64,000 nucleotides of DNA from a virus (lineage: Duplodnaviria; Caudoviricetes), in the IMG/VR virus record IMGVR_UViG_3300023435_000009; one strand, written 5' to 3'. Made by a program: the position numbers and the translations under genes. Positions within the stretch are counted from its first letter, which is position 1, and each line of letters begins with the position of its first letter. The notes below the pieces were generated by a model. The model did no database searches and was not told where the DNA came from. It saw only the letters and a program-made list of their open reading frames with translations. Shown piece after piece: positions 1 to 17,152 of this stretch.

Positions 1-392
1 TGGAAAAGGTGAGCAAGGAGGGGGGCAACACGGAGAGTGTCCCTCACCAGCGGCAATGGCTTAACAGGTTGCTCAAGTCCGTCCCCAGGGCTTACGGTAA
101 TGAGCACACACCTGGTCGTTGTTGGCGGAGGTCAAGACTCCGGGAGGTACTTGGGAATACTATCAAGCCGAGTTCACAGGAGAACGTGACTTACCCTCGG
201 TTGTTTAAGTTGTTTCCGGTGGCTGAGGACTTGAATGCTGATCCTGTAGTCCTTCAACACTTCCGGGATCTGTTTGATACCCATTATTTTTTTGACGCCG
301 TGACAGAGATCGAAGAGGGGGAGAACCCTGTTTATGATCTCAATGTTCCTGAGGGTGAGTCCTTTGTAGCCAATGGTTTGACAAATCATAAC
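1..392 (+). mobile_element. C-terminal part of an intein in terminase
   Basis: Intein blocks F/G: VYDLNVPEGESFVANGLTNHN followed by Thr (HN|T at 392/393); the extein TFLAAAIAAYE fits the Thr of a Walker A GK|T. Confidence 0.9.
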
Positions 393-1967
393 ACGTTCTT
401 GGCGGCTGCTATTGCAGCATATGAGACCTACAAGCTCCTTCTGAAGGGTGATCCACAATCGTTTTACGGGTTGCCTGCTTCGAACAACGTCCAGATCATC
501 TCAGTTGCAACAGACAAGGACCAGGCGGGACTCCTCTACCAGGAGGCATCAGGACATTTCCGGAATTGCGGGTTCTTCAGCCCGTACATGGCCAACAACA
601 CCCAAAGTTACGCTCGGTTCCAGACCCCAAAGGACATCGAGCGGTTTGGTCGGTACGCAGACGATCAGACAGCCAAGGCAACCATTAAAGTGACCTTCCG
701 GTCCTGTGTTGCGAAGGGGCTTCGTGGTGCCGGTAACTTCGTGGTGATCCTGGATGAGATGGCGCACTTCACGGATGAGGGGCAATCCTCCGCCGACGCC
801 GTCTACACAGCGGTGACACCGTCCACGGCTACCTTCTCCCCGAAGGCTGAGAGGGTGCTTCCTGAGGGGGACTTTGACCCCCAGGGGGACGGTTCCGAGG
901 GACGCCACTACCGGGAGGCCACCGACTCCAGTGATGGTCGCATCATCTCCATCTCGTCCCCTCTGGGTCGTCAGGGGATGTTCTACAAGAACTTCCAGCT
1001 TGGGATGAGTGGGGGGAAGGCTGCTGAGAACTATCTGTGCATTCAGGCTCCCACGTGGGAGGTCAACCCCACGGTACCCTCGACGGAGTTGGAAAAGCAC
1101 TACGTCAAGGATCCTGTTGTGTTCTTCACGGAGTTCGGTGCAGAGTTTTCTGACCGGACGAAGGGGTTCATCGAGGACGAGAAGGACTTTATGGCTTGTG
1201 TGCCCCCTACGGCCAAGCCCGCCTCAATGGGGCTTTCACGCCGTCCTCATTATGTTGGACTGGATATCGCTCTGGTGGGTGATGCCTCGGCCATTGCTAT
1301 TGGGCACCTGGACGATGACGACCGGATTGTGCTGGATGTAGTGGACCAGATCAAGGCGGGAGATGGGAAGTACGAGCATCATGAACGGTTGGAGTTCGAT
1401 GACGTTGCTGATTGGGTGGCGGAGTATGCCCGAAAGTTCTTTTTTTCCGAAGGTATGTTTGATCACTGGGCTGGGATCCCCTTTGAGCAGGCCCTCCACA
1501 AGCGGGGGCTTCAGCAGTGCAATGCAGAGCACATGACCCGTAATTTGAACTCTGACATCTTCAAGAATTTCAAGGATATGATGTGGGACAAACGGTTGGT
1601 ACTCTACGATTGGCCTCTCTCGGAGGACAAGAGCAAGGAGCACTGTCCGTACATCACGGAGATGCTTGAGCTTCAGGCGGAGTACCACTCGAAGTATGTG
1701 ATCGAGGTCCACGCCCCCAAGATCGCTGGCAAGCACGACGATATGTCTGATGCCATCGTGCGGATGGTGTGGCTGGCTTCCAAGCACCTTGCCAATCCTC
1801 GTTACATCTCACGAGGTGGGGGGAAGCACAGGACTAGGACACAGCAGCAGAAGGCCAACAATGCAGGAGACGCTCGACGTGCCCTTATCCGGTCACGGCG
1901 AATGGGCAGCAGTCCTGATCGGCAGTTGTCCCGGTCACGTCCCGGTTGTATCCGAGGGAGACGTTGA
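9..1967 (+). CDS. terL: Terminase large subunit (5'-truncated, intein-interrupted)
   Basis: Walker B-like VVILDEMAH, coupling motif IISISSP, RNase H-like nuclease motifs YVGLDIA and KHDDMSDA; first gene of a terminase-portal-head cluster. Confidence 0.9.
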   Translation: MSKEGGNTESVPHQRQWLNRLLKSVPRAYGNEHTPGRCWRRSRLREVLGNTIKPSSQENVTYPRLFKLFPVAEDLNADPVVLQHFRDLFDTHYFFDAVTEIEEGENPVYDLNVPEGESFVANGLTNHNTFLAAAIAAYETYKLLLKGDPQSFYGLPASNNVQIISVATDKDQAGLLYQEASGHFRNCGFFSPYMANNTQSYARFQTPKDIERFGRYADDQTAKATIKVTFRSCVAKGLRGAGNFVVILDEMAHFTDEGQSSADAVYTAVTPSTATFSPKAERVLPEGDFDPQGDGSEGRHYREATDSSDGRIISISSPLGRQGMFYKNFQLGMSGGKAAENYLCIQAPTWEVNPTVPSTELEKHYVKDPVVFFTEFGAEFSDRTKGFIEDEKDFMACVPPTAKPASMGLSRRPHYVGLDIALVGDASAIAIGHLDDDDRIVLDVVDQIKAGDGKYEHHERLEFDDVADWVAEYARKFFFSEGMFDHWAGIPFEQALHKRGLQQCNAEHMTRNLNSDIFKNFKDMMWDKRLVLYDWPLSEDKSKEHCPYITEMLELQAEYHSKYVIEVHAPKIAGKHDDMSDAIVRMVWLASKHLANPRYISRGGGKHRTRTQQQKANNAGDARRALIRSRRMGSSPDRQLSRSRPGCIRGRR

Positions 1968-1997: not shown

Positions 1998-3413
1998 ATG
2001 GGGGGTTTTACAAACGTCTTGAAGGTCACCCGAATACTTTTTTCTAAAGACCTCAATGCAGGCAAGTTTGCCGTCTTAGAGGAACAAGCACGTCGATTAG
2101 GACAACTTCGTTCAGAAATATGGCAACGATTCGGATCCATAAATGGCGTTGGGAAATCGGATAGAGAAATCCGAGACGAATGGTTGCAACAGAAAAGAGA
2201 GTTTGATGTTCCAGCCAACGCCTGGAAAGAAACCCTGAGAGACGCTATCTCAGATGTCAGGGCATCCCGAGAAGCTGCAAAGGTCAAAGTACGAAAGACA
2301 ATACATTGTCACACAAAGGACACTGCCGAAAGAAAACATCGGTACACGCTTCTTAAGTCAGATAACTGGACAACTGACCCTTACCTGACTCGTGTCATGC
2401 GAAAGCATTGGAAGCGTGGACACAATCACACACATAATCAAATTATCGTTCGTGCCGACAAGTACAGGATCTTTGAGCTTGATAGTCGGGTTTGGCTCAA
2501 GATACCAGGGCTAACACCACGAAAAATGGTTACAATACCTTTGGACACAACCGTACACCCAACAGGTACTCTCCGACTGATCCTTCGGGACGATAGGGTC
2601 GAGATTCACTACCAAATTGAAGTCAAAAAGGAGAATCGTCACGGAGATACCGTACTAGGTGTGGACAAGGGGTACACAGAAGTCTTTGTAGACTCTGACG
2701 GAGAACACCATGGGAAAGAACTTGGGAAACTGTTATCCTCGGAGTCCGATTACTTAAAAACCAAGCATCAACGACGGAACAAGATCAAAGCAATTACTGA
2801 AAGGAAGCCACACAAAAGAGCGAACATCGAACGAAACAATCTTGGTCGAAAGAAATTGGATCGACGAGATCGGGTTGTGAAAGCCCATGTTCGGGACAAG
2901 GTTTTCAAGGCTGCTCATGCTGTCGTTGACAAGGCAGAGGTAGTTGTTGCTGAGGATCTGACTTTCCCCATTTCTTCGAGGAAATCTTACGGAAGGAATA
3001 TGAACAGGAGACTTTCTGCTTGGACCAAGGGTGTCATTGCGGAGAGTCTTGATTCCGTATCTCAGCGTAGAGGTTCTACGCTTGCACTCGTTAATTGTGC
3101 ATATACATCGCAAGTGGATTCTCGTTATGGTGTTCTTCGTGGACGTCGTAGAGGGGACTCATTTTACTGTTTTGATGGGGTTGTTTTGCACTCTGATGAG
3201 AATGCTGCACGAAACGTTTTGGCAAGACATTACGACTTTGAGATAGGTCGTTGGACTTCATACCGGGAGGTTCGGAGTATTTTGCTTGAACGGACTGAAT
3301 GCCATCGGTTGGGACTGCTCAACCAGGACACCAGTTGCAGACCTGAGGGTCTATCAACGGTGAGCGAATTACCTTTTGGACACATGTCCTACTTAAAAAG
3401 GAACAGACGCTAA
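1998..3413 (+). mobile_element. tnpB: TnpB RNA-guided nuclease #1 (IS607/IS200-605 accessory type), no transposase
   Basis: RuvC triad GVDKG / VAEDL / HSDENAA intact; AYTSQ motif; lower GC than flanks; probable start TTG 2019 (LKVTRIL, matches paralog at 37066). Confidence 0.88.
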
Positions 3414-3670: not shown

Positions 3671-3966
3671 GGGATGGTAGGCAACAGAGAGCGGCTGACG
3701 CTTTTAACGCCCATGTGAGCAACGCCTCCAGATCTTTGTCCCAAGCTTCCCGTTGTGTTACGGAATTCCTCGGGGGGCGGGACATCCTCCGACGTTTGTC
3801 GAGGATGCAGGCGGAACTTGCGGGATTGCATGCCCCCAATGCTCGGACCACTGACGACCACGATCTCCTCCCGGAGGAGACACAGGCGGAACGCTCCCGT
3901 GCCCGTAGACAGAAGCGGGCGGAGGAGCGGAAACACAAGGTAGAGGCAAATGGCCAAACGCACTAA
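3667..3966 (+). CDS. Hypothetical protein (99 aa)
   Basis: ATG 3667 overlaps the previous stop; the stop overlaps the portal start. Confidence 0.6.
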   Translation: MRDGRQQRAADAFNAHVSNASRSLSQASRCVTEFLGGRDILRRLSRMQAELAGLHAPNARTTDDHDLLPEETQAERSRARRQKRAEERKHKVEANGQTH

Positions 3967-6900
3967 GTCCGACGACGCCGTGGAGGTCAAAGCGATCCCA
4001 CCCCGAAAAGGTGTAAGGACCGGCAAACCGGGCAAGATCGTCACCTCTGCCATGCGGATGAAGACTGCCATGGGTCTCCCCACGGCAGGGACGATGATGG
4101 GTGTGGGGGGCAACTACTACTCCCCCGAGTTGTCTACCGATTTCCTAGAGTTGCCCCAGAGCAGAGACGAACAGCGCAACTTCTACCGTTTCTTCTATGA
4201 TTACGAGCCCTTCGTCGGCCAGGCCATCGACCAGCACACGGAACTGCCCCTGTCCAAGCTTCGGCTCCGTATGCCTGTGGCCAAGAACCGGGAACTGGCC
4301 GAGAAGTCCATGCGGTTCTGTGAGCGCTGGGCGAAGAAGATCAAGCTCCTCCAGAAGCTGATGCGGATCACCCATGAGTACCACCTGATGGGTGAGGCCA
4401 ACATCTTCTGTGAGGATACCAACGAGGAGATGCCGGACGAGGTTCGGGCGCAGTTGATCCGAGAGATCAAAGAGGACGGGACTCTGGTCGAGCGTTGGGA
4501 CGAGTATGAGGACGCTGATGAGCGGGCCGTTGCGTGGTTGAAGAAGAACTACAAGGGCTGGACGGCGGTTCGGGTGCTGCCCCCGGAACAGGTCAAGGTG
4601 GAGAGCTTCCCCTTCACGGATGAGAAGTTGGTCGAGCTTGTGCCGGACGCCAAGAGCAAGGCCATCGTGGAAAGAGCCCGTGGCGGTGACCCAAACGCCG
4701 AGCGCATCGTGAACTCGATGCCCACCGACATTGTGCAGGCAATCCTAGAGGGTCGGAACCCGGTCCTCAACACGGACAAGGACGCTGGCTCTTTCGTTTA
4801 TACCCTGGAGCGGAAAAGGTCGGACTACGAACCTCACGGTAAGTCCATTCTTCAGCGGTGTTTTCTGCCAGGCACCCCCATTTGGGTCAGTCGAGGTGGT
4901 GTGCCCCAAGAAGTACCCGTTGAGGACGTTCAGAACGGGGAGATGGTGTTGACCCATAATGGTCGGTTCCGATCATGTCAGGTGGGATCTCGCTCCGTGG
5001 ATGAAGAGATCACCGTGATTGACGTGGAGGGGATCCAAGATCCTTTGCGTCTGACATCTGAACACAGAGTGATGCGAATTGCCGAGGACGGTACCGAGGA
5101 GTGGGTTGAGGCCCGGCACATGCGAGTGGGTGACTTGGTGCGTGAAGCACACATCGCTCCTGAGAGTGACGACGTTCCAAGTGTTGTTGATCTGGTCGAA
5201 TGGTGGCAGGGTCGGCAGTTGTTGTCGACCAAGAGGGGACGACCAAAGCTGGGACTGTCAGAAACGGATCGTCAGTTGCAGGTGCTGTCCAGTACCGCAG
5301 ATTCAGAACTGACTGTTTGTTTTGAGTACCTGTCTGATAACAGAAATCATTTGCGAGCAACAGAAGGTTTGACTCGACTTCTGCAATGGGCACACAAGCT
5401 CACTGCACCCGTTGTCAAAACACAATCTGAGGTGGCCCTGGAAGCGGGGGTTTCCGCACGGGATGTACGGGTCTATGCCCCCAGGTTGCGGAAAGAAGGT
5501 TTACTCAAAACGGAAGCTGTCTCATTAGGCCGAGGTAAACAGGTAACATGGTACCCATCTACGACGTCTGAATTACCGTCCGTTCAGACCACAATAACGT
5601 CTCCAGTTAGTTCAATTAACGTTACAGAGGAGTTTTGTTACCTCCTTGGGACATGGTTGGGGGACGGTTCCATCTGGACAGAAAAAGAGACCCTTTTGAA
5701 CGTGCATTCTCTCAAGTGGTCCCTCCATGATGAGGGAATGCGAGAAAGGATTCGGGGTCTGATCAAAGAGTGTTTTCCTGGTGTGGACATTATCACTGGT
5801 TCTCTGATGAGTAAAAAGGGACATCAGGGTGACGTTCGTGTGGAGGACCCCCTTCTAGCCCGTTGGTTCCTTGAGGAATTTGGGCACGGGTTCGATGGCA
5901 AACATCTGCCGGAATGGGTTTTCAATCTTCCTGTGTTGATGTTGCGGGCTCTCCTTCAAGGAGTGGTTGATACGGACGGATGGGTGAAGAAGGACGGAAC
6001 CACTTTAACTATAGACTTGAGGAACAAAGTCCTGGTACAGCAGCTCCATCTGTTGGCAAACCGAGTGGGGTTTCATACTCAGGTGCGGAAAACAATCCAG
6101 CGTCCGCACGTTTGGAAAAGAAAGTGGGAGAATCAACAGGGAGCACAGGAAAAGACGTACTCCTACGAGGAGCGGGAGTGTTGGAAGGTTGAATGTTGCC
6201 GCTCTGATGATATCCGGGCATGGACAGAGGGGGGGCTAAAAACCCCCACCTTGAGTGTTCCCCAACAGAAATACACCTGGTGTTCCCGTTTTAAGGGGGG
6301 GCATCTCACCCGTAAGGTCCGAGATGTTAGAATTCGCCCGTACCAGGGAGTTGTGTACTCCTTTGGTGTTGTTGGGGATGAGTCCCATATAACTGGGGGC
6401 ATCACTACTCACAACTGTATGAGAACTCTCGTCTTTAGAGACAAAGTTCGACAGTCGCTCACATCGATAGCTTCCCGACATATGACACCTTACCGTCTGG
6501 TTTATGCCGAGGACATGAACGAGGAGCAGACCGAGGCCCTCCGTGAGCAAGTCGACTTAGCTCTTCAAGACCCTGACTACTCAATCGTTACGAACTTCCA
6601 GGTCAACTGGGAGGAGATGGGTGCTGACCAGCGGCTCCCGGACTGGTCCTGGGTGTGGGACAACACGAATCAGCAGCTTTATGCTGGTCTCGGTGTGACC
6701 GAGGCTCTTTTGTCAGGTGAATCCAGCTACTCTGGGGACAGGATTTCCCTGGAGGTCATCAACAGCCGCTACATGTTCCTGAGGGAGGTGCTTCAGGACT
6801 TGGTGGAGGAGAACTTCTTCGAGCCAATGTGTCGCCGGATGGGTTTTGTGGAGGAGGATGAGGATGGGAACATGCAGGTAATCGTTCCTGGCCTGTCCTT

Positions 6901-7201
6901 CACCCGGTTGGCCCTGCGGGACACGGCGGACACATTCGACGCTCTGTTCAATTTGTACCAGAAGGGTTCGTTGGATATTGATGTGATCCTCGATCTTATG
7001 AATATCGATCCGGTGACCACCCAGGAGAAGCTCAAGCGGGATCTGTTCACGTTGAATGATGCCACCTTCAACGAGCTTCTCCGGGGCGTGTATGGCAAAG
7101 CTGGGGATCTGCTTGTGGACGGTACAACCATCATGGAGAAGATCGCAGAGAACCTGGGCCTCAAGTATGTGAAGCCCAAGGACGATGCCGGTCGTTTCTA
7201 A
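3950..7201 (+). CDS. Portal protein (about 564 aa after intein removal)
   Basis: Position after terminase; helical phage-portal-like sequence (FYRFFYDYEPFVGQAID; GVTEALLSGE); interrupted by an intein. Confidence 0.8.
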   Translation: MAKRTKSDDAVEVKAIPPRKGVRTGKPGKIVTSAMRMKTAMGLPTAGTMMGVGGNYYSPELSTDFLELPQSRDEQRNFYRFFYDYEPFVGQAIDQHTELPLSKLRLRMPVAKNRELAEKSMRFCERWAKKIKLLQKLMRITHEYHLMGEANIFCEDTNEEMPDEVRAQLIREIKEDGTLVERWDEYEDADERAVAWLKKNYKGWTAVRVLPPEQVKVESFPFTDEKLVELVPDAKSKAIVERARGGDPNAERIVNSMPTDIVQAILEGRNPVLNTDKDAGSFVYTLERKRSDYEPHGKSILQRCFLPGTPIWVSRGGVPQEVPVEDVQNGEMVLTHNGRFRSCQVGSRSVDEEITVIDVEGIQDPLRLTSEHRVMRIAEDGTEEWVEARHMRVGDLVREAHIAPESDDVPSVVDLVEWWQGRQLLSTKRGRPKLGLSETDRQLQVLSSTADSELTVCFEYLSDNRNHLRATEGLTRLLQWAHKLTAPVVKTQSEVALEAGVSARDVRVYAPRLRKEGLLKTEAVSLGRGKQVTWYPSTTSELPSVQTTITSPVSSINVTEEFCYLLGTWLGDGSIWTEKETLLNVHSLKWSLHDEGMRERIRGLIKECFPGVDIITGSLMSKKGHQGDVRVEDPLLARWFLEEFGHGFDGKHLPEWVFNLPVLMLRALLQGVVDTDGWVKKDGTTLTIDLRNKVLVQQLHLLANRVGFHTQVRKTIQRPHVWKRKWENQQGAQEKTYSYEERECWKVECCRSDDIRAWTEGGLKTPTLSVPQQKYTWCSRFKGGHLTRKVRDVRIRPYQGVVYSFGVVGDESHITGGITTHNCMRTLVFRDKVRQSLTSIASRHMTPYRLVYAEDMNEEQTEALREQVDLALQDPDYSIVTNFQVNWEEMGADQRLPDWSWVWDNTNQQLYAGLGVTEALLSGESSYSGDRISLEVINSRYMFLREVLQDLVEENFFEPMCRRMGFVEEDEDGNMQVIVPGLSFTRLALRDTADTFDALFNLYQKGSLDIDVILDLMNIDPVTTQEKLKRDLFTLNDATFNELLRGVYGKAGDLLVDGTTIMEKIAENLGLKYVKPKDDAGRF
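4859..6415 (+). mobile_element. Intein (519 aa) with LAGLIDADG endonuclease in portal
   Basis: N-terminus CFLPGT, block B LRLTSEH, LAGLIDADG motifs YLLGTWLGDGS and LQGVVDTDG, C-terminus TTHN|C. Confidence 0.92.
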
Positions 7202-7236: not shown

Positions 7237-10200
7237 GTGAAAAGAGCCGACGCAGAAAACGGGAAAAAGACGGGTGACCGTTCAGACGTTGGTCTGTTTA
7301 TCCCTCTTCCCGGAGATTTGGCATCCCAGTTTCCTGATCTAGGTAGCAACGACCAGTCGGTGCCTCACTCCACCTTCCTCTTCGTAGGATCCGTCCCGCA
7401 GGGCCGGGAAGAGCGGCTGCTGGAGGTGGTGAGGGGTGTGCTGGCAGAGTTGTCCGGTCCGGTCCGGGCGCAACTGGCGTCGGACATTGAGTACTTTGTA
7501 CATCCGGCCAAGCAACGTCGGGTGGCGGTCCTCCCCGTCCGTTTTAGCCATGATCTGGCGGCGATTCGATGGAAGCTCCGGGACGCTCTGGTAGATGACG
7601 GGTTTGATGTGGATGACAGCTTCCCATTGATCTACCGTCCCCATGTGACCTTGGAGTATCTTAACGACCTGGACGAGACCTATGTCGGGACTGTCCCGTC
7701 CGGTGGGTGGTCCCTCAACGGGATCGAAGTCTGGGGTCTGCCCCGTGTGGTGGAGGTCCCCTTCAGCAGCGTCAGCAAGTTGGCCCACCGGCATGTGGAG
7801 TCCAAGGCCCACCACCGTTCCGTCGCACTCATGAAGTTCCTTTCAGGGGTAGCCCGGAAGCTGGGCGTTGGTAACGACGTGTACGTCGTCGGTGGTGCCG
7901 TCCGGAACTTTGTGCTGGATCCCACGGGTCTGAAGTATCCGATTAAGGACATAGATGTCGTCATAGATCCTGTAGCGCTCCGCCGCCCTGACGCCTCCGA
8001 CTGGTTCGCCCAGAAGGTGAAGCGGGCCATCCCCGTGGACGTGAGCCTCGTGACTAACTCGTATGGGGTGAGCATTGTTACAATTACGGGGGATTGGATC
8101 CTGGATGGTGTGTCCATGGCTGGGGAAGTCATAGAGATCGCCAACGCCCGGACCGAGTCCTATGGCGGCACTGCTGGTAAGGGTTACAAACCCCATTTGG
8201 TGGAGCCTGCGACCATCGAAGAGGATGTTAAACGCAGAGACTTCAGTTTTAATACCCTCCTCTGGCGGATGCATGACCTTGCCAACGGCCCGGATCAAGT
8301 GGCGATTCTGGACCTGACGGGCTGCGGGATGAAGGATCTCCAGGATGGGTGGATGCGCTGCCCCTCCAAGCCGGACAGGACCTTCTCGGACGATCCTTCG
8401 AGGATGGTCCGAACTATAAAGTTCATGTTGAAATACGGTTTCAAGATCAGCTCCGAGGTCAAGGCGTCCATCAAGAAGAACGCCCCGAAGCTCAAGAACA
8501 TCCCACCGGGGCACCTGTCCAATATGATCATTGAGACTTTCTTCACGCCCGGTGTGGGAAAGAAGGCCCTCCTGGAGATGGACAAGCTGGGGCTGCTTGA
8601 GGTGACACGGGACATCGCCAGGAAGGATAAGAAGTTCCGGCAGGCTTTGGCCAACTGGGCGGACGCTCATGCCTCCGTGGAGTTCATCTTCGATCTGATG
8701 GATCTGGGGATGCCTTCCGGCAAGCGGTTGGGTTTCCTGAAGCCTGCACAGAAGGATCGTGTACGGGAGATCACCGTACAGATGGATGCCGATGGGTCGG
8801 ATGCCTTTGTGCGGCTGTTGGAGCAGCCGGGCAAGGTCCTCGACATGCCCGGACTCATTACAGAATATGGGTTCAAGGGTGCTGAGATCCGTGCCCTTGT
8901 AGAGGCAGCCCGCACGGCTCTGTTGGACGAGCCTCTCCTGGCCTCGTCCGGTCGGAAGTGGGAGGACAAGATCCGGCGCAGGCTGGGTAAACCTGCTGGG
9001 AAGACCGCTGGAAATGAGGCTCATGTGGTAGCCTCTAAGCCTGTTGTGATTGACGAGGTTCACCTCAAAAAGCTCAAGAAGGACTTCCTCACCTTCACCC
9101 GACAGATTAAGAAACCGAAGGACTACGACCAAGCCCGGTATATGGCTGACGCCTATACTCGTTGGCGGGTGCAGTTCGAGGATTTCATCAAGCGTCTCTG
9201 GAAGTACATGGATGGCCTTCACTGGAGGCATCCGAATTTGTTCTCTGAAAACGACAGAGACTACTGGCGTCGAGTCGTTGGGGAGGATACCTGGGTCCTT
9301 CAAACTGAGAACTTCCCGCTACAGCATCCTGATGACTACTGGACAGAGGAACAGTGTGTTGCTGAGTTTGAGCAGCGACGTGGGCCATGGGTCCGAAAAG
9401 TTCAGAGAGGGGCTCGGGAGGCTTGGTCCCGTCTTGATGACTTCGTCTCGTGGATGGAGACCAACCGTCTCCAAGCGCTACAGACAGAGGGGGACAAGGT
9501 CACACTTGAGTACCCCGAGGTTTACAAGGAGAACATCGACGGTTTCCAGTTGACGTTCAAGGGAATCGAACCGGATGACCGGGCGGAGGTTAAGGGGTTC
9601 TTGGCAGGGCTGAAGAGGTATAAGGCACTGGCTGCGAAGCGTATGCCCCTTCTTCTTCGGAGGAAACTCCCCATCGTCGTGAACAGTATGGGTGAGGTGG
9701 GGCTTGAGTGGGGTGGTCAGTACCACACCCGTTACATTGATTTCAACCTTGCCTCGTCCAGTAGCTCAGGGATACAGAATCGCACTGTTCATGTCTTGGC
9801 TCATGAGATGGGGCATCATATCTTCAAGTCTCTTGGCAGTAAGTCCCGGAAGTTCTGGGACACCCTCATCCGGGGGGACATGGAGCCGTTGGATCTGAAA
9901 AAGATTTACCCCCTGATGAAGGCGGGGGAGGATCTTCAGTGGCTTGCTTTCGACATCGAGGAGAAAGATCCAATCCTTGCCCTCCAGTTAACAGGGGTGA
10001 GCGAGGACTGGCGATGGAAGCACAATGTCCCGACTAAAGAGAAGGTCAAGGAGTTCATTGACGGCGGTGAGGTGCAGATCCATGTTCCCAAGCGCCCCAT
10101 CACCTACTACGCCTCAAAGAACCCAGAGGAAGCCTTCTGTGAGGTGGTCGGGCTTCTGGTTGCCAATGGCCCTGGGTCGGTGGACAACGAGATCCTCCAC

Positions 10201-13200
10201 TGGCTTCGGGTGATCGTACCGTCAGCCAAGATCGCCAACCTCCAGGGTGTGGTGGAAGTCCCGAAAAACACCCACCCAGTCAAGGTGGAGCCGCCCAAGG
10301 CCAAGAGGAAGCAGTTTCCCTTCGTAGGGTACATCGACTTCCAGGGCATCAAGATTGACGTTGAGAATAAGCAGGGGGACGTGCGGAAGGGTGTCAGCCC
10401 TGATGGTGAAGAGTGGGAAACCCACATGTTCCACCATTATGGCGAAATTCGGAATACTGAGGGTACAGATGGCGATAAATTAGATGTTTATGTGGGGGAC
10501 AATCACGACTCTTCCCTGGCGGTCGTTGTCCACCAGCAGGATCCTGACTCAGGCAAGTTCGATGAGGACAAGGTCATGCTCGGCTTTGATTCGGTCGAGG
10601 AGGCCATCGGAGCCTACAAGAAGCAGTACGACCAGCCTGGGTTCTACGTTGAGGGCGAGCACCTGGAGATGCCCATAGGGCAGTTCTGGCGCTGGGTCAA
10701 TGAGGACCGGAACAAGGGTAAGAAGGTCAAGGATGCTGTTGTGCATACAGCGGCCCAGCACGCCCCCTCTACGGCCCCGACGTGGTTTCCCGAGGTAGAG
10801 GGGCGGGTCACAGACATAGCGGCGTCAGGGGACAACGACGAGGGTTGGAAGGCAGCGTCCCAGCGGAGGACTGCCGAGCATAATGACGATTACCAGAGAC
10901 GGGAGAAGGTGCTGCCGGAGGACCTAGACTTTGCCCGGAAGCACCATCTGCCCTTAGAAGAGGATCAGTATTGGGGCACTGTGGTGCCCCTTAAAGCGCT
11001 TTATACAAAGCGTCCCCAATACCACATTTTTGGCATGAACTTAGGTGATCAGAAGCGGTTTGTTTTCGCATCCATTCCTTTGTCCTTGTTAGTCCCGGCT
11101 CAAGAAACTGTCTCGTTGATAGGGCTGCATCGCTACACCGAAGGAAATGTGCGGAGTGACAAGGGTGTACCAGAAGTAGTGCTCTGTGAGTCAGCTTTTT
11201 TTGTCATGGAGGGGCACACCCGGTTGGCCGCAGAGAGGCTCAGAGGGCACTCACGGGCCGAGGTGAAGCTGTTCCTTTATGACGGTAAGAAGTTTCGGAA
11301 GCCTACAGATGAGGATCTGCCCTCATCTGTGCGGCTCCTTAAAAGGAGGCGGAGAGCAACCGCCGCCCAGCGGATAGCAGATCGTTACGTTGAGGGCCTG
11401 CAGATCAACCTGAACGTGGGTGACCCCGTTTTCTACGGGAAATGGAAGTCTTCGCCAGGTACCATCAAGGACTTCAAAACGGATCCCAAGAGCGGTGACC
11501 CTGTTGTGACGGTCGAACCTTATCCGAAGGGACGCAAGAAGCCGAAGGATCTCAAGCTCCTCAAGATCAGGGAGCGGCAGCCCAAGCCAGAAGAGAAGAA
11601 GGCTGGGATGCTGGAGCCGCCTCCGGCGATGGTGAAGTCTGTCCTTGAGTGGGTCATGGCCGTGACACAGAGCACTAAGGCGTTCCGGGCCAAGGAGGAT
11701 TTGGCAAAGGCTCAGGATGTCCTTCAGGCGTTGACAGCACTCAAGCGGGACATGACGAAGCAGCGGGGTGTTCTTGAGGACGCCGTTGCGGATCCGAAGG
11801 TCGGTGTCCGGGCCGAGTACGCAGCCCTTAAGCAGTACGTGGAGACCCTCTTTGAGGACAACCGGAGGACGGCGGTCTTTGTGCAGCGTCTCGTGTGGGG
11901 GCCTCCCAAGTTCAAGAAGTTCACTGAGGCCCACAACAAGGGTGACCTGCCAAGGTATGTGAGGTCAGTCGGTGACGAGGTAGACGAGGCCCTTGCGGAC
12001 AGGATGAAGGCCGTTAAGGGACAGGTCCAGAAGCTCCGGGCCGGGGCCGGTGGTCCCTCAAAGGTGCAGCCAATAATGCCCGGAAAGGAACTGGTAACCC
12101 GGATCCCCGTAGATCTGCGTGGGTGGAAGTACGAGGGGCAGGTTACCGTAGAGAAGGGGGTCAAGGGACTTGTAGATGTCATCACCAAGGCCATGGCCCG
12201 TAAGACGGACATCGATGAGGAGTCCCGGAAGTTCTTTGACGAGTTGATGGAGGGCAACAAGAAGCAGTGGCAGTCTATCGCTGTAAAGTTGGACCCGAAC
12301 CAGACCCCTCACGGGAGATGGCAGTCCGCAACCAAGATGCTGACCCTGAAGTTCGGTGGTCCCGAGAAGGACGCCGCATGGTACCGCCCCCTCATCGAAC
12401 ATGAGTTGCGGCACGTTGCACAGGATCTGATCAATTTCTCCGAGGGTCTGTATGACAGAGGGGGCCGACCTTCTCGTAAGATGCTTACTCCAGACTACAC
12501 CCAGCAGGACGAGGATGCGGCGAGGCAGAAGCTGAGGGCCGTGGGCATCGATCCACGTCAGGTAGCGATTCATCATCTGGACGATGTGGAGTTCTACACG
12601 GACCTGGCAGACGCTGTCGGAGAGTACAAGAGGCAGCAGCCAAAGTTCGACCATCTCCCTCGTAATGAGACCATCAGGTTCTTTGTGGGTGGGAAGGCCA
12701 ATCCTGAGGTGGCACAGGAACTTCGCAGTTTGCGGATGCACCCCCTCCCCTTCTTCACGACGTTGAAGAGGGTTCCTTCCGCAAGGGGTAAGTACCAGAA
12801 GGCTGTGAATGAACTGCTTAAGGCCACGGGCGGGTCCGCTACCAGGGTGGCTCTCCGTTACCTCCAGGGGAAGCAGGCTGGCGTGTTCCAGGGGCCACCG
12901 GCGCTGTTGAAGACCATCCAGGAGTGGGCGCTGGCCACCTACGCCGGACACATCCTCGCTGGGGTTGAGACAGACCTAGAAACGATCCTTGACGCCAAGG
13001 GGCCGATCAAGAGGGCCATCCAGGACATGGGCAAGGGATACGATGAGGTCACTAAGGCGGGCAGTCTTTCCGTTGGCGGATCCTTCAAGTTCCCGATGAC
13101 GGACACCTTCGGCGGTTCCAGTAGTCTCTCCAAGAGTGTCTGGGGGGTCAAAAGGACGGGGGAAGACGTCTACCTGATCGGGAAGGGTGACCGTTCCGTT

Positions 13201-16200
13201 TCCTGGAAGCCCCAACAGTTGCCCTGGCAGTGGGGTCGTGGACCGTGGACCCTTGAGGAAGTCAAAAAGCATCTGATGCCCTACATCAGCAGGGCGACGC
13301 AGAGGATGCGGTCGAAGCTGGATCAACCTGTTGTTGACCCCAACATGCCCAAGGCCGTGGAGTTAACCCTCCTGAAGCGAAAGTGCCTCCAGTACACGAC
13401 TAAGGCCAAGCATTACTCCGGGAAGGCCACCACTAAATTCAAGCTGGATCTGTCCGGTTGGAAGTACCTACCCAATCCCCGAGAGGCCGAAAAGCACATC
13501 AAGGATGAAGAAGGTTGGGATGTGGTGAAGGTGGTGCTGGACTTCAAGGGGAGCCAGACAAAGGGCGGCTACTGGTCCCTCAAGGAGAGGACCCTGGACG
13601 TAGAGATCGGGGCCGGGGCCACCAGCCACTATATCCGAACACCAGAGCAGGCCCGGACGGTGTCTCTGTTCGAGACAGGTATAACGCAGATCACAGGGAC
13701 TTGTCGTCATGAGGTCCAGCATATTGGACAGGATGCCCTGAGGCTCGCTAAGGGATTATCGGAGGACGCAGGTCTCCCTGGCCGCACTCTACGGAACCCG
13801 GACTTCACCCCCGAGGGGCGGAAGCTGCACGTCCCTGAGGGGGATGCTCCTTCTGGGAAGGTACACCCGCTTCGGGATGTGGAGTTCCATACCCGGATCC
13901 AGGACGAGATAGAGAAGTTCTCTCGCTTTGTGCGGAAGGGTGTTGTCGCCAAGGCTAAGATCAAGGAGGCCCTCCATATCTGGGTGGGGGCGTCCCCCGA
14001 GAATGAGATGAAGGATCCAGACGGCAAGGTCATCATGACCACGCAGCAGTTCTTCTACTCCCTGCGGAAGTACGAGAAGGGGAAGTGGCAGAAGGCCGTC
14101 GATGAGTTCAGGAAGGGTCTTATGCGGAAGGGTCTCCGGATCAGTTCTGAGGACATCCAGTCGGCCATGACGCAGAGGGTCAGGCAGGACCAGGAGTACT
14201 TTGCCTCGCTCTTGGGCACTGTCGCTCAGATCCAGTCCGAGATCGATGCTCATCCCGATTATTACTCTACATCGGACAAGAACAGGAAGCTCTGGTTGGC
14301 GTGGAAAGATCTGGCTTTGCTAGGGGATCGGCTGGCCAGGGCCGTGTTGGATCAGAAGAGCATCCCGCCGGGCAAGAATAAAGCCTTCGAGTTGGCTGCT
14401 CGTGCCTTCATCTCTATACGGGGGACTCCCCGTGACATTGAGAAGTGGATGGTGAAGAACAAGCGGCACATCAACCTTCTCAACGACACCGTAGACTGGC
14501 CAGACAAGTCAGAGGACGAGAAGCTCAAGGTGGGGGCCTTTACGGTACACAACACCCTTGGGTTGGAAGGGGCGGACCTTGACCGAAGTAAGAAGAACGT
14601 TCAGAAGGCTGAGTCGCTGATTCGTCGGATGCCCTTTCCGAAGGGACTCAAACAGGTTCTTTATGGGGACGTTTACATAGTAGCTCGGCTAAACAAAACC
14701 AAAACGTGGGCCTTCTACTACCCTCGGGACGACAACGTCTATGTCAGGGCTGACACCAAGGGTGTGTTGGGAGAGACTCACAGCCTTATTCACGAACTGG
14801 CTCATCGCTATTGGGAACAGTTCGCATCCGTTTCCAAGAAGCACGCCTGGATCCGCCACCACGCCCATATGTCCGGCAAGAGCATGCCCGCCGAGAAGAT
14901 GCCGATGCCGAACGTTGGGGAGACTCTCCCCCTCAAGATTCCGGGTGCCCCTCGGGGGTTCGAACCTGTGGTTTCCCATGTCCATGCCGGGAAGTACTGG
15001 TTCGATGTGCCCTCCAAGGATGGGAAGACGACCAGGACGATGAACTACCCCGTCCACGAGATGGCGAAGTTCCTTTATGACCGGGACGAGAGGACAAAGC
15101 GGCGGGAGACCTTCCCGACCCCCTATGCAGCGAAGAACGCTGAGGAACACTTCTGTGAATCCACGGCATTGAGGGCATTGGGCAAACTGAAGGGGTCAAA
15201 CTTGGATGAGTACGACCGAATCTGGGGTGGCTCAGGGGGGCGGGTGGCCAGTCAGGACTCATCAGTAGAGGCCAAAGTGGACTTCTCTGGCACTCGTTGG
15301 GTAGTGGCACCCCCGTCCAAGTTGGACGAGGCACAGGCTGAAACCGTTTGGCAGGTTTATCATACATCCTATGGGAACCTTGGTGAACACATCTCAAACC
15401 TGTCGGAGCTGTTGTCCAAGTACCAGTTGTTCTGGCTCGTGGATGTAGACGGGGATGAGAAACCGGATGCGTTCATTGCCTATAAAAAGACCCCAGCGGG
15501 TAAGAAGATAGGTGTTATCGGTTCTGACGGGTCTCCGTTGGCCAAGCGACTAGTGGTACGGAAACTCCTCCAGTTGTTTCAGGGCAACGGGTACTACGTC
15601 GAGGCTTCGGGACGACCGGCACAAATGCTAGACTCCGCTGGGGTGCCCCATGTGACGGATCAGGCTGATGTGGAGGCCGTGATGGCTCCGAAAAAGATCC
15701 ACTGGTTGGGGGACGGTAAGTACACCAGGGCCATTGGTGGTTTGGGGACGAAGGAGAAACGCTTGTACGGACATCCCAGGATCCCACGAGCACGTAAGCA
15801 GGCACGTCGGTTGGCCACCCGCTGGCTCAGGTCCTCTGCGAGCATCCCGGCCCAGCAGATTGCAGCACGTTATCTGGAGGCCGGTGCCTACCCCACAAGC
15901 CGTTTGGTGGAGGGTCCACTCATTGACGGGCATATCCCACCGAGAACCCCACAGGGACGGCCTCCGGCGTATTTATACCGCTCTATGCCGGTGGCGGAGT
16001 ACGAGGCAGCAGTGTCTCGGGGTCAGATGCGGGGGCGTCCGCTCCACGCCGCAGGCGAGCCTGTTTTCTACACCCTCAACCCAGGCGAGAACGTCCTGGT
16101 CGCAATAGAGTACCGTGACCGAGATGGCTGGGACTCCAAGGTGGGTATGGGAGGCAGCACCATTTACGCCATCACCCACGACGCTATTCCGATGTCGAGA

Positions 16201-16335
16201 GTTGCTGAGTTGGCACGGGGGGCCAAGGGGGATCTGAAACGGTGGAAGTCCGCTGCCAAGTTCAAGGACAAGAAGAAGGTCAAGAAGCAGGATGGCGGCG
16301 AGATGACCGGAGGTAAAGCTGATGTGTTCTTCTAA
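7237..16335 (+). CDS. Giant multidomain (polyvalent) protein, 3032 aa
   Basis: Domains read by motif: 2H phosphoesterase (HST 7366, HVT 7642); class II CCA/poly(A) nucleotidyltransferase (GGAVR, DID, RRDF, FSDDPSR); HExxH peptidases (9802, 12400, 13708, 14791); phage pyrophosphatase (YGEI..DGDKLDVYVG..DEDKVMLG); ParB-like (EGHTR); SH3/KOW-like; GNAT-like. Confidence 0.85.
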   Translation: MKRADAENGKKTGDRSDVGLFIPLPGDLASQFPDLGSNDQSVPHSTFLFVGSVPQGREERLLEVVRGVLAELSGPVRAQLASDIEYFVHPAKQRRVAVLPVRFSHDLAAIRWKLRDALVDDGFDVDDSFPLIYRPHVTLEYLNDLDETYVGTVPSGGWSLNGIEVWGLPRVVEVPFSSVSKLAHRHVESKAHHRSVALMKFLSGVARKLGVGNDVYVVGGAVRNFVLDPTGLKYPIKDIDVVIDPVALRRPDASDWFAQKVKRAIPVDVSLVTNSYGVSIVTITGDWILDGVSMAGEVIEIANARTESYGGTAGKGYKPHLVEPATIEEDVKRRDFSFNTLLWRMHDLANGPDQVAILDLTGCGMKDLQDGWMRCPSKPDRTFSDDPSRMVRTIKFMLKYGFKISSEVKASIKKNAPKLKNIPPGHLSNMIIETFFTPGVGKKALLEMDKLGLLEVTRDIARKDKKFRQALANWADAHASVEFIFDLMDLGMPSGKRLGFLKPAQKDRVREITVQMDADGSDAFVRLLEQPGKVLDMPGLITEYGFKGAEIRALVEAARTALLDEPLLASSGRKWEDKIRRRLGKPAGKTAGNEAHVVASKPVVIDEVHLKKLKKDFLTFTRQIKKPKDYDQARYMADAYTRWRVQFEDFIKRLWKYMDGLHWRHPNLFSENDRDYWRRVVGEDTWVLQTENFPLQHPDDYWTEEQCVAEFEQRRGPWVRKVQRGAREAWSRLDDFVSWMETNRLQALQTEGDKVTLEYPEVYKENIDGFQLTFKGIEPDDRAEVKGFLAGLKRYKALAAKRMPLLLRRKLPIVVNSMGEVGLEWGGQYHTRYIDFNLASSSSSGIQNRTVHVLAHEMGHHIFKSLGSKSRKFWDTLIRGDMEPLDLKKIYPLMKAGEDLQWLAFDIEEKDPILALQLTGVSEDWRWKHNVPTKEKVKEFIDGGEVQIHVPKRPITYYASKNPEEAFCEVVGLLVANGPGSVDNEILHWLRVIVPSAKIANLQGVVEVPKNTHPVKVEPPKAKRKQFPFVGYIDFQGIKIDVENKQGDVRKGVSPDGEEWETHMFHHYGEIRNTEGTDGDKLDVYVGDNHDSSLAVVVHQQDPDSGKFDEDKVMLGFDSVEEAIGAYKKQYDQPGFYVEGEHLEMPIGQFWRWVNEDRNKGKKVKDAVVHTAAQHAPSTAPTWFPEVEGRVTDIAASGDNDEGWKAASQRRTAEHNDDYQRREKVLPEDLDFARKHHLPLEEDQYWGTVVPLKALYTKRPQYHIFGMNLGDQKRFVFASIPLSLLVPAQETVSLIGLHRYTEGNVRSDKGVPEVVLCESAFFVMEGHTRLAAERLRGHSRAEVKLFLYDGKKFRKPTDEDLPSSVRLLKRRRRATAAQRIADRYVEGLQINLNVGDPVFYGKWKSSPGTIKDFKTDPKSGDPVVTVEPYPKGRKKPKDLKLLKIRERQPKPEEKKAGMLEPPPAMVKSVLEWVMAVTQSTKAFRAKEDLAKAQDVLQALTALKRDMTKQRGVLEDAVADPKVGVRAEYAALKQYVETLFEDNRRTAVFVQRLVWGPPKFKKFTEAHNKGDLPRYVRSVGDEVDEALADRMKAVKGQVQKLRAGAGGPSKVQPIMPGKELVTRIPVDLRGWKYEGQVTVEKGVKGLVDVITKAMARKTDIDEESRKFFDELMEGNKKQWQSIAVKLDPNQTPHGRWQSATKMLTLKFGGPEKDAAWYRPLIEHELRHVAQDLINFSEGLYDRGGRPSRKMLTPDYTQQDEDAARQKLRAVGIDPRQVAIHHLDDVEFYTDLADAVGEYKRQQPKFDHLPRNETIRFFVGGKANPEVAQELRSLRMHPLPFFTTLKRVPSARGKYQKAVNELLKATGGSATRVALRYLQGKQAGVFQGPPALLKTIQEWALATYAGHILAGVETDLETILDAKGPIKRAIQDMGKGYDEVTKAGSLSVGGSFKFPMTDTFGGSSSLSKSVWGVKRTGEDVYLIGKGDRSVSWKPQQLPWQWGRGPWTLEEVKKHLMPYISRATQRMRSKLDQPVVDPNMPKAVELTLLKRKCLQYTTKAKHYSGKATTKFKLDLSGWKYLPNPREAEKHIKDEEGWDVVKVVLDFKGSQTKGGYWSLKERTLDVEIGAGATSHYIRTPEQARTVSLFETGITQITGTCRHEVQHIGQDALRLAKGLSEDAGLPGRTLRNPDFTPEGRKLHVPEGDAPSGKVHPLRDVEFHTRIQDEIEKFSRFVRKGVVAKAKIKEALHIWVGASPENEMKDPDGKVIMTTQQFFYSLRKYEKGKWQKAVDEFRKGLMRKGLRISSEDIQSAMTQRVRQDQEYFASLLGTVAQIQSEIDAHPDYYSTSDKNRKLWLAWKDLALLGDRLARAVLDQKSIPPGKNKAFELAARAFISIRGTPRDIEKWMVKNKRHINLLNDTVDWPDKSEDEKLKVGAFTVHNTLGLEGADLDRSKKNVQKAESLIRRMPFPKGLKQVLYGDVYIVARLNKTKTWAFYYPRDDNVYVRADTKGVLGETHSLIHELAHRYWEQFASVSKKHAWIRHHAHMSGKSMPAEKMPMPNVGETLPLKIPGAPRGFEPVVSHVHAGKYWFDVPSKDGKTTRTMNYPVHEMAKFLYDRDERTKRRETFPTPYAAKNAEEHFCESTALRALGKLKGSNLDEYDRIWGGSGGRVASQDSSVEAKVDFSGTRWVVAPPSKLDEAQAETVWQVYHTSYGNLGEHISNLSELLSKYQLFWLVDVDGDEKPDAFIAYKKTPAGKKIGVIGSDGSPLAKRLVVRKLLQLFQGNGYYVEASGRPAQMLDSAGVPHVTDQADVEAVMAPKKIHWLGDGKYTRAIGGLGTKEKRLYGHPRIPRARKQARRLATRWLRSSASIPAQQIAARYLEAGAYPTSRLVEGPLIDGHIPPRTPQGRPPAYLYRSMPVAEYEAAVSRGQMRGRPLHAAGEPVFYTLNPGENVLVAIEYRDRDGWDSKVGMGGSTIYAITHDAIPMSRVAELARGAKGDLKRWKSAAKFKDKKKVKKQDGGEMTGGKADVFF

Positions 16336-17152
16336 CTTTATCGGACAGGTTTATTCCTTGCATGATCCTGTGACACAGGAGTTGCGTTATGTTGGACAAA
16401 CAACACACACACTGGAACATCGTTTGAAACAACACTTGAAGCAGTTGAAAAAAAGCACACACAAAAACAACTGGATTCGGTCTCTTCTTCCTAGTCGACC
16501 TTTGATTCGGCACGTTTGTTTCGCTGCCTCTCAGTCTGAATTGGATCTTCTGGAGATAGGCCACATCGCAAAAACAAAAACCTCTGGGTGTCGTCTGACT
16601 AATGCAACTACAGGGGGGAGGGGAGGGAGGCATTCTGCTGAGACCATCGCAAAAATGAGAGTGGCACACACAGGAAAAGTGTTTTCACAGGAGGCTCGAC
16701 AAAACATGTCCAAGGCAAAAAAGGGTCATCCTGTTTCGGAAGAGACCAGACGTAAAATTGCTGCCGCAAATACAGGACATGTGCCATCGCTGGACACTCG
16801 AACCAAATTAAGTTTAGCACTTCTTGGCCATACCGTTACAAGTGAGACGAGACAACGCATCTCAGAGGGTAACAAGGGCAAAGAGCGTACTGCTGCTTTT
16901 CGAAGACATCTATCGAAAATTAACCTTGGAAAGAAACACACGGAAGAGTCTAGGCTTCGAATGTCGGGGCGGGTGATGCCTGAGGAGACCCGACAGAAAA
17001 TTTCTAGGGCATTGAAAGGGCGAGCAAAAGAGGGGATGTCCGAAGAAACCAAGCGTAAGATTTCGGATGCCAAAAAAGGAAAGACACTGTCCTTTGAGAC
17101 CAGGCAACGAATGTCAGAGGCGCAAAAAGTCCGATGGGCAAAACAAAAATGA
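16322..17152 (+). mobile_element. Free-standing GIY-YIG homing endonuclease with NUMOD3 repeats
   Basis: VYSLHDP..RYVGQT..RLKQH N-terminal domain; about seven H/V-SxETRxKIS repeats; AT-richer than flanks. Confidence 0.85.

Follow-up and report, generated by a model that had tools for sequence, protein, structure and literature searches.

Closest described systems

Two kinds of phage protein come closest to the gene analyzed here, which lies in a 64,000-nucleotide stretch of viral DNA (Caudoviricetes; IMG/VR record IMGVR_UViG_3300023435_000009; "the window" means this whole stretch) and encodes a protein of 3,032 amino acids (aa) that begins with a 2H phosphoesterase domain and a class II nucleotidyltransferase (NTase) domain. 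The first kind comprises the polyvalent proteins, giant multi-enzyme chains encoded beside the portal gene. In the survey by Iyer, Burroughs, Anand, de Souza, and Aravind (2017; PMC5512222), 2H and inorganic pyrophosphatase (InPase) are counted among the phage-type polyvalent domains, it is proposed that HExxH modules split the polyvalent chain into units and that the chain is delivered along with the DNA, and a pyrophosphate-removal role of InPase is also considered. The survey does not mention a CCA-type NTase (zero occurrences of "cca") and gives pol-beta NTases for conjugative elements only. It also states that polyvalent 2H domains had never been observed together with RNA ligases or RNA-repair partners, and therefore favors RNase or anti-signal roles for them. 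The second kind comprises CCA-adding enzymes that jumbo and huge phages encode as solo genes (Iyer et al. 2021, PMC7824862; Al-Shayeb et al. 2020, PMC7162821). These are class II NTases of tRNA-rich genomes with a proposed role in CCA restoration.

The protein encoded in the window shares with the polyvalent proteins its giant multi-enzyme chain next to the portal, here with 2H, NTase, InPase, and four HExxH regions. It differs from those of the 2017 survey in the partners of its 2H domain, which are an RNA 3'-end polymerase and, in relatives, HAD RNA-repair phosphatases. From the solo phage CCA enzymes it differs in that the NTase is encoded in a head operon as part of a polyprotein; solo members of the NTase family under study measure ~390 to 420 aa. 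A tblastn search of GenBank phages returned only NTase matches of ~30% identity and no 2H-NTase fusion. We found no description in the literature of a CCA-type polymerase in a portal-adjacent polyvalent protein together with end-healing phosphoesterases and a pyrophosphatase. Since polyvalent proteins and phage CCA enzymes have each been described already, the finding combines two known kinds and does not constitute a new category.

A similar logic is found in a bacterial enzyme. Escherichia coli Cca, in work by Yakunin and colleagues from 2004, reportedly combines a class II NTase with an HD domain that acts as a 2',3'-cyclic phosphodiesterase, a 2'-nucleotidase, and a phosphatase. In both cases, a CCA polymerase would share one chain with an enzyme that clears cyclic or linear phosphates from RNA 3' ends. 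However, in contrast to the C-terminal HD domain of Cca, the healing domain here is an N-terminal 2H domain (HAD in some relatives), and the phage protein is thus an analogue rather than a member. Pfam and NCBIfam scans detected no C-terminal HD domain, and NF008137 matched the NTase head only (43.7 bits, cut-off 451).

Two N-terminal domains of one polypeptide

The original prediction described an adjacent pair of a 2H phosphoesterase and a CCA-type NTase. Both are present at that place; however, they are two domains of one polypeptide and not two genes. As seen from the open reading frame (ORF) list and its translation, a single ORF holds both, and they make up the N-terminal domains, within the first ~600 residues of the chain (window 7276 to 9009). 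The features on which the argument depends are as follows.

7237 to 16335, plus strand: polyvalent (multi-enzyme) protein gene, 3,032 aa, directly downstream of the portal gene (ORF and translation, domain matches)
7276 to 7782, plus strand: 2H phosphoesterase domain, LigT/ThpR-like, aa 14 to 182 (family matches below cut-off, model, structure matches, conservation)
7777 to 7797, plus strand: junction heptapeptide KLAHRHV, aa 181 to 187, between 2H and NTase (copy of a recurring linker motif)
7801 to 9009, plus strand: complete class II (CCA-adding/poly(A) polymerase-type) NTase, aa 189 to 591, with head, neck, body, and tail (PF01743, PDB matches, Z-scores, conservation)
10327 to 10698, plus strand: InPase (type I inorganic pyrophosphatase-like) domain, aa 1031 to 1154 (PF18823, E 1.4e-37, above cut-off)

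The ORF starts 36 bases past the end of the portal gene, and the window contains no second copy of 2H or of the NTase. In 12 or more metagenome runs from salt lakes (2017 to 2019), ~100% of the words sampled from positions 7237 to 9100 were present, so this part is not an assembly artefact. No RNA run was listed among them.

We propose that aa 14 to 591 form a tRNA 3'-end "heal-and-extend" unit. The NTase would add CCA to phage tRNAs made without it and rebuild it on trimmed or cut tRNAs, whereas the 2H domain would open the 2',3'-cyclic phosphates left by metal-independent RNases, making a 3'-OH available for extension. InPase would remove pyrophosphate and so pull nucleotidyl transfer forward. 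The enzymes would probably be packaged in the capsid, separated by cleavage at the linker motifs, and brought in along with the DNA, in which case they would be active before late-gene expression. The identities of the 2H and NTase domains are practically certain, and it is fairly likely that the NTase is a CCA-type enzyme working on tRNA ends. For the picture as a whole, including a probable delivery in the capsid, our confidence is slightly better than even.

The class II NTase

Residues 1 to 640 were searched with phmmer against 1.84 billion cluster representatives, giving 9,272 matches, 310 of them at E<1e-30. The best 150 relatives were dissected by domain, and an alignment (A1) was built from them. 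AlphaFold with this alignment gave a model with a mean predicted local distance difference test score (pLDDT) of 93.9; a single-sequence model of aa 1 to 640 (pLDDT 40) was discarded. The motifs noted for the two domains in the original prediction (HST and HVT in 2H; GGAVR, DID, and RRDF in the NTase) are all present, intact, and conserved in relatives. In the NTase, motif A consists of G219-G-A-V-R223 (7891 to 7905) and D238-I-D240 (7948 to 7956), motif B of R333-R-D-F336 (8233 to 8244), and the nucleotide-selecting motif D of D385-D-P-S-R389 (8389 to 8403). The PolyA_pol head (PF01743) matches aa 215 to 373 with an E-value of 8e-12 and 46 bits against a cut-off of 23.

Across 120 family sequences, G219, G220, R223, K237, D238, D240, R305, E307, Y309, P319, R333, R334, N339, D386, R389, and R392 are invariant or nearly so. 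Motifs B and C (R333-R334-(D/E)335, N339, and D359..G362.G364...L368) are conserved at 92 to 100%, and motif D follows the family pattern D385-D386-P-x-R389..R392..K395-F396 with invariant Asp and Arg. The RxExY...KP element, typical of CCA enzymes, is likewise conserved, whereas the aligned segment of E. coli poly(A) polymerase (PAP) lacks it. The relatives are 40 to 70% identical to the query, so the retention of these residues reflects purifying selection on the active sites.

The model matched the CCA enzymes of Arabidopsis thaliana (9kma; Z 19.1), Thermotoga maritima (3h37; Z 18.4), and Bacillus stearothermophilus (1miv; Z 18.3), the A-adding enzyme of Aquifex aeolicus (Z 18.4), and E. 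coli PAP (3aql; Z 17.0, aligned only to aa 541). The alignments to 9kma, 3h37, and 1miv reach aa 584 to 591 and cover the helical neck, body, and tail. Since the model contains the head, the neck, the body, and the tail, the class II nucleotide pocket is present; this pocket, whose absence would have told against the original prediction, was looked for and found with the invariant motif D Asp and Arg and the full class II fold. The domain thus shares with 3h37, 1miv, and 9kma the head-neck-body-tail architecture, motifs A to C, the motif D Asp/Arg pocket, and RxExY...KP. It differs from them in its low identity (17 to 25%), in a ~25-residue insert after motif A, and in being a domain of a 3,032-aa protein. 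The family profile scored CCA-adding enzymes at 90 to 106 bits, the A-adding enzyme at 87, and E. coli PAP at 80. By sequence, this ranking and the RxExY...KP element lean toward CCA addition.

The actinobacterial CCA equivalog scored 74 bits on the domain (cut-off 439). Judged from its sequences, the family is a separate phage clade, known from metagenomes only (at least 310 clusters at 50% identity), and not an orthologue of the curated CCA-adding, A-adding, or PcnB enzymes.

We also observed interruptions of the NTase gene in relatives. LAGLIDADG inteins of ~455 aa lie inside motif B (RREFTFN|C...VVHN|T) in five to six relatives (P0009, P0040, P0042, P0052, P0063, and P0119). The site falls between N339 and T340 (window ~8251 to 8254), which is the type of site that inteins favor in active enzymes; the protein of the window has no intein there. 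In other loci, the NTase is split into two ORFs (L011, L022, L023, L055, L063/L064, L080, and L081), some with a gap of ~0.8 to 1 kb. In L023, for example, the parts lie at 9755 to 10744 and 11572 to 13896. Such splits may be due to the insertion of an intron or of a free-standing endonuclease gene.

The 2H domain resembles RNA cyclic phosphodiesterases

The two catalytic motifs of the 2H domain are H44-S-T46 (7366 to 7374) and H136-V-T138 (7642 to 7650). Sequence profiles recognized the domain below their cut-offs: PF13563 matched aa 41 to 147 of the giant protein with 19.5 to 23.6 bits against 27 (E 6e-5, still below cut-off, when the N-terminus was scanned alone), PF02834 gave 17.2 bits against 23.3, and TIGR02258 ("RNA 2',3'-cyclic phosphodiesterase") gave 22.7 bits against 65.7 (E 7.5e-5). 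The domain is a divergent clade whose membership in the superfamily is established by fold and motifs only. H44, T46, H136, and T138 are 100% conserved in the 41 relatives with this domain, several structural residues are invariant or nearly so, and pLDDT exceeds 90 over aa 14 to 178 of the alignment-based model. This model superimposes on the 2',3'-cyclic phosphodiesterase (CPDase) of Deinococcus radiodurans (5h7f) with Z 14.5 and a root mean square deviation (rmsd) of 3.5 over 162 aligned residues. The assignment is upheld despite the low sequence scores because of this match and the conservation of the motifs.

Other structural matches were B. subtilis YjcG (2d4g; Z 13.6), Pyrococcus horikoshii LigT (Z 12.4), Usb1 (Z 12.2), E. 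coli LigT (4qak; Z 12.0), viral 2'-5' phosphodiesterases (PDEs; Z ~10.5), the penguinpox cyclic GMP-AMP (cGAMP) PDE (Z 8.6), the phage BCSR5 PDE (Z 8.1), and Acb1 (7t27; Z 7.8 over 128 residues, with no sequence match found). With the LigT/ThpR-type CPDases (5h7f, 2d4g, and 4qak/5ldm) the domain shares fold, size, and the two HxT motifs over 147 to 162 aligned residues; it differs in its identity of 14 to 17% and in its fusion to an NTase in a virion-module protein. In the model, therefore, it is nearest to RNA 2',3'-CPDases (Z 12 to 14.5), much nearer than to Acb1. In the viral structure library, the best matches were large proteins of actinophages, annotated as "capsid morphogenesis" or as structural (the top one with 30% identity and rmsd 2.7). 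They have no NTase and look like the head-associated 2H polyvalent proteins of Iyer et al. 2017.

The original prediction had also raised the degradation of cyclic second messengers. The comparisons bear on a fuller form of this alternative, in which the 2H domain acts alone as Acb1 does, destroying immune nucleotides (cyclic di- and trinucleotides of the cyclic-oligonucleotide-based antiphage signaling system [CBASS], cyclic oligoadenylates of type III CRISPR, or 2'-5' oligoadenylates), with the adjacent NTase unrelated. The 2H fold and both HxT motifs are common to Acb1 of phages FBB1 and T4, the poxvirus cGAMP PDE, and the viral 2'-5' PDEs (Z 7.8 to 10.6), 2H domains of this type are also found in virion proteins of actinophages that carry no NTase domain, and this role, or an RNase role, was proposed for polyvalent 2H domains in PMC5512222. 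However, RNA-end CPDases fit far better than Acb1 or the BCSR5 PDE, Acb1 is a small solo protein with a weak structural match, and the domain, at ~170 aa, is LigT-sized. Moreover, a nucleotide sponge or PDE would not be expected to pair repeatedly with an RNA 3'-end polymerase, HAD phosphatases, and tRNA_lig_CPD, as described below for the relatives. The anti-CBASS alternative thus drew no specific support, and we consider counter-signaling improbable.

Repair enzymes recur beside the NTase in relatives

The ~390-aa NTase module is found in all 150 top relatives, whose lengths run from 276 to 3,381 aa and include solo proteins of 376 to 420 aa. The 2H domain occurs in 41 of the 150 and in all orders, before or after the NTase and in each case directly or with a spacer. 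The original prediction had also named a pyrophosphatase in the same chain that would pull nucleotidyl transfer forward; the InPase at aa 1031 to 1154 bears this out, and relatives fuse InPase directly to the NTase (P0021, P0025, L004, and L023). Among these, P0021 is NTase-InPase (615 aa) and P0025 is NTase-InPase-2H (850 aa). The PHROG matches of InPase are minor head, virion structural, and DarB-like proteins.

Next, a Pfam tally was made of 122 flanks of 300 aa that lacked this 2H and InPase. HAD_SAK_1 was found in 12, DUF5661 in 7, and tRNA_lig_CPD, another 2H cyclic phosphodiesterase, in 4, together with one RNA ligase (E 2e-34), one PAP2 phosphatase, and the typical polyvalent domains ART-PolyVal, GNAT, and Topoisom_I. 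The repair role of HAD_SAK_1 is taken from its Pfam description, "HAD domain in Swiss Army Knife RNA repair proteins." With a profile made from one HAD neighbor, HAD was seen to adjoin the NTase in 15 of the 150 relatives. Two of these are NTase-HAD-2H proteins, and this co-occurrence suggests that HAD and 2H carry out successive steps (opening of the cyclic phosphate, then removal of the phosphate) and are not alternatives. The recurrence of 2H, HAD_SAK_1, and tRNA_lig_CPD, together with the single RNA ligase, fits the earlier suggestion of a pathway that heals tRNA or RNA 3' ends and re-adds CCA.

Since the top-150 list is biased toward proteins with both query domains, a second sample of 80 IMG/VR loci, 63 of them nonredundant, was picked by an NTase-only alignment (A3); a scan of viral contigs with the single protein had found no relative, whereas the NTase-only alignment recovered these loci. 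A portal homologue precedes the NTase ORF in 41 of the 80 loci, and the order terL-portal-[polyvalent ORF]-topoIB-protease is kept in 36 of the 63. The partners are distributed as follows, some loci carrying more than one.

Head-operon loci (n = 36): 2H in 23, HAD in 4, InPase in 3, none of these in 11
Loci elsewhere (n = 27): 2H in 1, HAD in 3, InPase in 0, none of these in 23

In the NTase tree, head-module and solo forms interleave (8 changes), and there are at least 7 changes in the presence of 2H and at least 3 in its order. We also observed partners as separate adjacent genes: 2H ahead of NTase-InPase (L004), 2H ahead of NTase (L033), HAD after NTase (L062 and L073), and, in L054, a solo NTase likewise with a separate adjacent 2H or HAD gene. 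The tree changes and these separate genes counter a pure shared descent of the 2H-NTase link. Overall, we hold with moderate confidence that 2H and NTase are functionally coupled.

In locus L002, the gene ahead of a solo NTase (5896 to 6819) encodes an N-terminal HAD_SAK_1 and, toward its C-terminus, two HxT motifs (HITIAL and HVTIST); its sequence suggests a HAD-2H healing enzyme in which the 2H part is of a second type.

tRNA genes of sister genomes

tRNA genes were looked for in the 64-kb window, and none were found; on ~100-kb contigs that bear the module, nondetection is uninformative because these contigs are fragments of 21 to 28%. The tRNA genes were studied in sister genomes. G001 (the contig of L005; 536 kb, CheckV 100%, NTase 67% identical) has ~66 to 70 tRNA matches, and G002 (the contig of L006; 436 kb, terminal repeats, 100%) has 67, arranged in a few arrays in both genomes. 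In G001, the one genome censused for this, an encoded CCA follows only ~20 of 63 distinct ARAGORN tRNAs, so that about two thirds lack it. RtcB is encoded inside a tRNA array of G001 and between tRNA arrays of G002, where a solo HAD_SAK_1 gene also stands beside an array. With ~65 tRNA genes and with RtcB and HAD_SAK_1 at the arrays, this phage clade makes a heavy investment in supplying and repairing tRNAs. In five sister genomes (363 to 536 kb), there is exactly one PF01743 gene per genome, which is the NTase of the large head-module ORF, and the head-module NTase is the clade's only candidate CCA polymerase. One ARAGORN call in G001 carries a four-base anticodon label (tgaa, 89 nt).

Because many tRNAs lack CCA and the NTase is the sole one, plain maturation of the phage's own tRNAs is at least as likely as repair. 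A stricter version of this idea holds that the module is housekeeping only, maturing CCA-less phage tRNAs, with an accidental fusion, no capsid delivery, and an unrelated job for 2H. The tRNA census of G001 and the single NTase in five genomes agree with it, as does the interleaving of head-module and solo forms, which indicates that the module works in both settings; moreover, for 23 of the 27 solo NTases, neither 2H nor HAD is encoded within 10 kb. However, it leaves unexplained why 2H, HAD, and InPase stay by the NTase through at least 3 changes of order and as separate adjacent genes, and why an enzyme needed when tRNAs are made is placed in a portal-to-capsid operon in 36 of 63 loci. We regard it as rather unlikely.

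Weighing the heal-and-extend proposal

As described above, the heal-and-extend proposal combines a tRNA substrate, CCA specificity, coupling of the two domains, packaging, and processing, all of which we infer. Loading into the capsid is probable because the position of the gene, with the portal on one side and the protease/capsid genes on the other, is that of phage polyvalent proteins. Delivery in the capsid draws on this position, the polyvalent parallel, the head and virion annotations of the PHROG matches, and the actinophage 2H matches, and we rate it as reasonably probable.

A number of points weigh against the proposal. For the NTase, structure does not separate CCA-adding, A-adding, and poly(A) enzymes in the model (Z 17 to 19), motif D begins with DD (DDPxR) whereas CCA enzymes have EDxxR, and motif E of CCA enzymes (ER...E..K) is not conserved, the aligned stretch IPPGHLSNMIIE keeping only P423 in the family. 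Taken alone, the query sequence has its best match in E. coli PAP I (E 1.4e-15), and the domain scores far below every NCBIfam equivalog cut-off, the best being pcnB (90 bits against 305). Domains of the same 2H type are found in virion proteins of actinophages that lack an NTase. The product of LigT-type enzymes carries a 2'-phosphate, and since no HAD phosphatase is present in the protein or encoded elsewhere in the window, the healing step may be incomplete here. Most cases of the link to 2H fall in the head-module lineage (23 of 36 loci), with just one among the 27 loci with solo NTases, and part of the link may therefore reflect shared descent within polyvalent proteins. The tRNA-gene evidence was drawn from sister genomes and not from the window's own genome, and it is from sequence that we infer packaging, cleavage, and timing.

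Some of the same points could favor a host-shutoff pair that sabotages host RNA, in which the NTase would be a poly(A) or tailing polymerase marking host RNAs for decay and 2H a Usb1-like 3' exoribonuclease. PAP I is the best single-sequence match and pcnB the best NCBIfam match, motif E is missing, and the Z-score of Usb1 (12.2) lies inside the CPDase range. Nevertheless, the family profile prefers CCA enzymes, the RxExY...KP element is kept in the family and absent from the aligned PAP segment, and body and tail align to aa 591 with tRNA-binding CCA enzymes but only to aa 541 with PAP. The neighbors of the NTase are repair enzymes (HAD_SAK_1 and the RNA ligase) and not nucleases, and the clade is heavily invested in tRNA supply and repair. 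Sabotage of host RNA is thus quite improbable.

Returning to the heal-and-extend proposal, a more specific version would see in the protein a capsid-delivered tRNA 3'-end repair kit (CPDase, CCA polymerase, and pyrophosphatase, joined in relatives by a HAD phosphatase) that serves as an injected counter-defense against immunity that disables the acceptor end. Candidate attacks are acceptor-end nucleases, MenT/AbiEii-type nucleotide-adding toxins, and CapRel-type 3'-pyrophosphorylation, which the InPase-like domain might reverse. We regard this version as unlikely. If it were true, it would be the first injected set of tRNA-repair enzymes and would give a repair role to polyvalent 2H domains, which PMC5512222 set apart from RNA repair.

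If the broader heal-and-extend proposal is true, giant phages with ~65 tRNA genes would bring an enzyme for finishing and mending tRNA ends in their capsid, the role put forward for a widespread virion 2H domain would have to be revised, and a compact three-enzyme module for RNA 3'-end repair would be at hand. Since the family is large and metagenome-only, a single biochemical characterization would annotate many genes.

Linker motif and remainder of the chain

The heptapeptide KLAHRHV at the junction of 2H and NTase is a copy of the pattern [ILVTM]A.R[YWHF][LVIMF], which was counted 80 times among the 150 relatives, compared with 5.8 times in shuffles (~14-fold). It may mark sites of cleavage or serve as a packaging tag. 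Seventeen copies, KLAHRHV among them, lie exactly 14 residues ahead of the start of the NTase. The motif also recurs at domain junctions of the window protein (aa 181, 1380, 1871, 2859, and 2875) and near the N-terminus of some solo NTases (P0022, P0042, P0079, and P0101).

11374 to 11394, 12847 to 12867, 15811 to 15831, and 15859 to 15879, plus strand: further copies of the linker motif (pattern as above)
9802 to 9816, plus strand: first of four HExxH motifs (HEMGH, aa 856 to 860), in a zincin-like region of ~aa 620 to 1010 (motif positions)

The other HExxH motifs lie at aa 1722, 2158, and 2519, and Pfam metallopeptidase matches were subthreshold only. In relatives P0093, P0126, L034 to L036, and L051, the zincin-like region (zinA) adjoins the NTase. 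Between aa 1180 and 3032, no significant Pfam or NCBIfam domain was found; weak Atlas leads are ParB_N-like at aa 1185 to 1480 (window 10792 to 11676; 0.82) and GNAT-like at aa 2650 to 3032 (15187 to 16332; 0.81).

Gene neighborhood in the window

The genes flanking the polyvalent ORF are listed below.

3950 to 7201, plus strand: portal gene with a LAGLIDADG intein, immediately upstream of the polyvalent ORF (phrog_16240 portal, E 7e-23; LAGLIDADG_3)
16322 to 17152, plus strand: GIY-YIG/NUMOD3 homing endonuclease gene, between the polyvalent ORF and the next ORF (Pfam and PHROG matches)
17134 to 20718, plus strand: 1,194-aa ORF with a type IB topoisomerase domain (PF01028, E 2.3e-25; synteny, and fusion in relatives)

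A head-protease-like gene follows the topoisomerase ORF, and a large terminase gene and a TnpB-like gene precede the portal; given the terminase, portal, topoisomerase, and head-protease-like neighbors, the window represents a phage head-morphogenesis operon. In relatives L003, L005, L006, L007, L010, and L012, one uninterrupted ORF runs from 2H-NTase through the topoisomerase part, and the polyvalent gene therefore seems to be split here by the endonuclease gene. By this sequence comparison, the 1,194-aa topoisomerase ORF corresponds to the C-terminal continuation of the polyvalent protein in relatives.

The TnpB/Cas12f-like gene lies at 1998 to 3413 (PF07282 and transposase PHROGs), between the terminase and portal genes. 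The intein of the portal gene occupies ~aa 320 to 820 of 1,083, and intein-free portals of relatives measure ~565 aa. In the large terminase (window 9 to 1967), a weak intein-splicing trace was seen at aa 90 to 128 (PF14890, E 4.5e-4, below cut-off), and the terminase ORF of relative L008/L009 has 1,457 aa, which suggests inteins there too.

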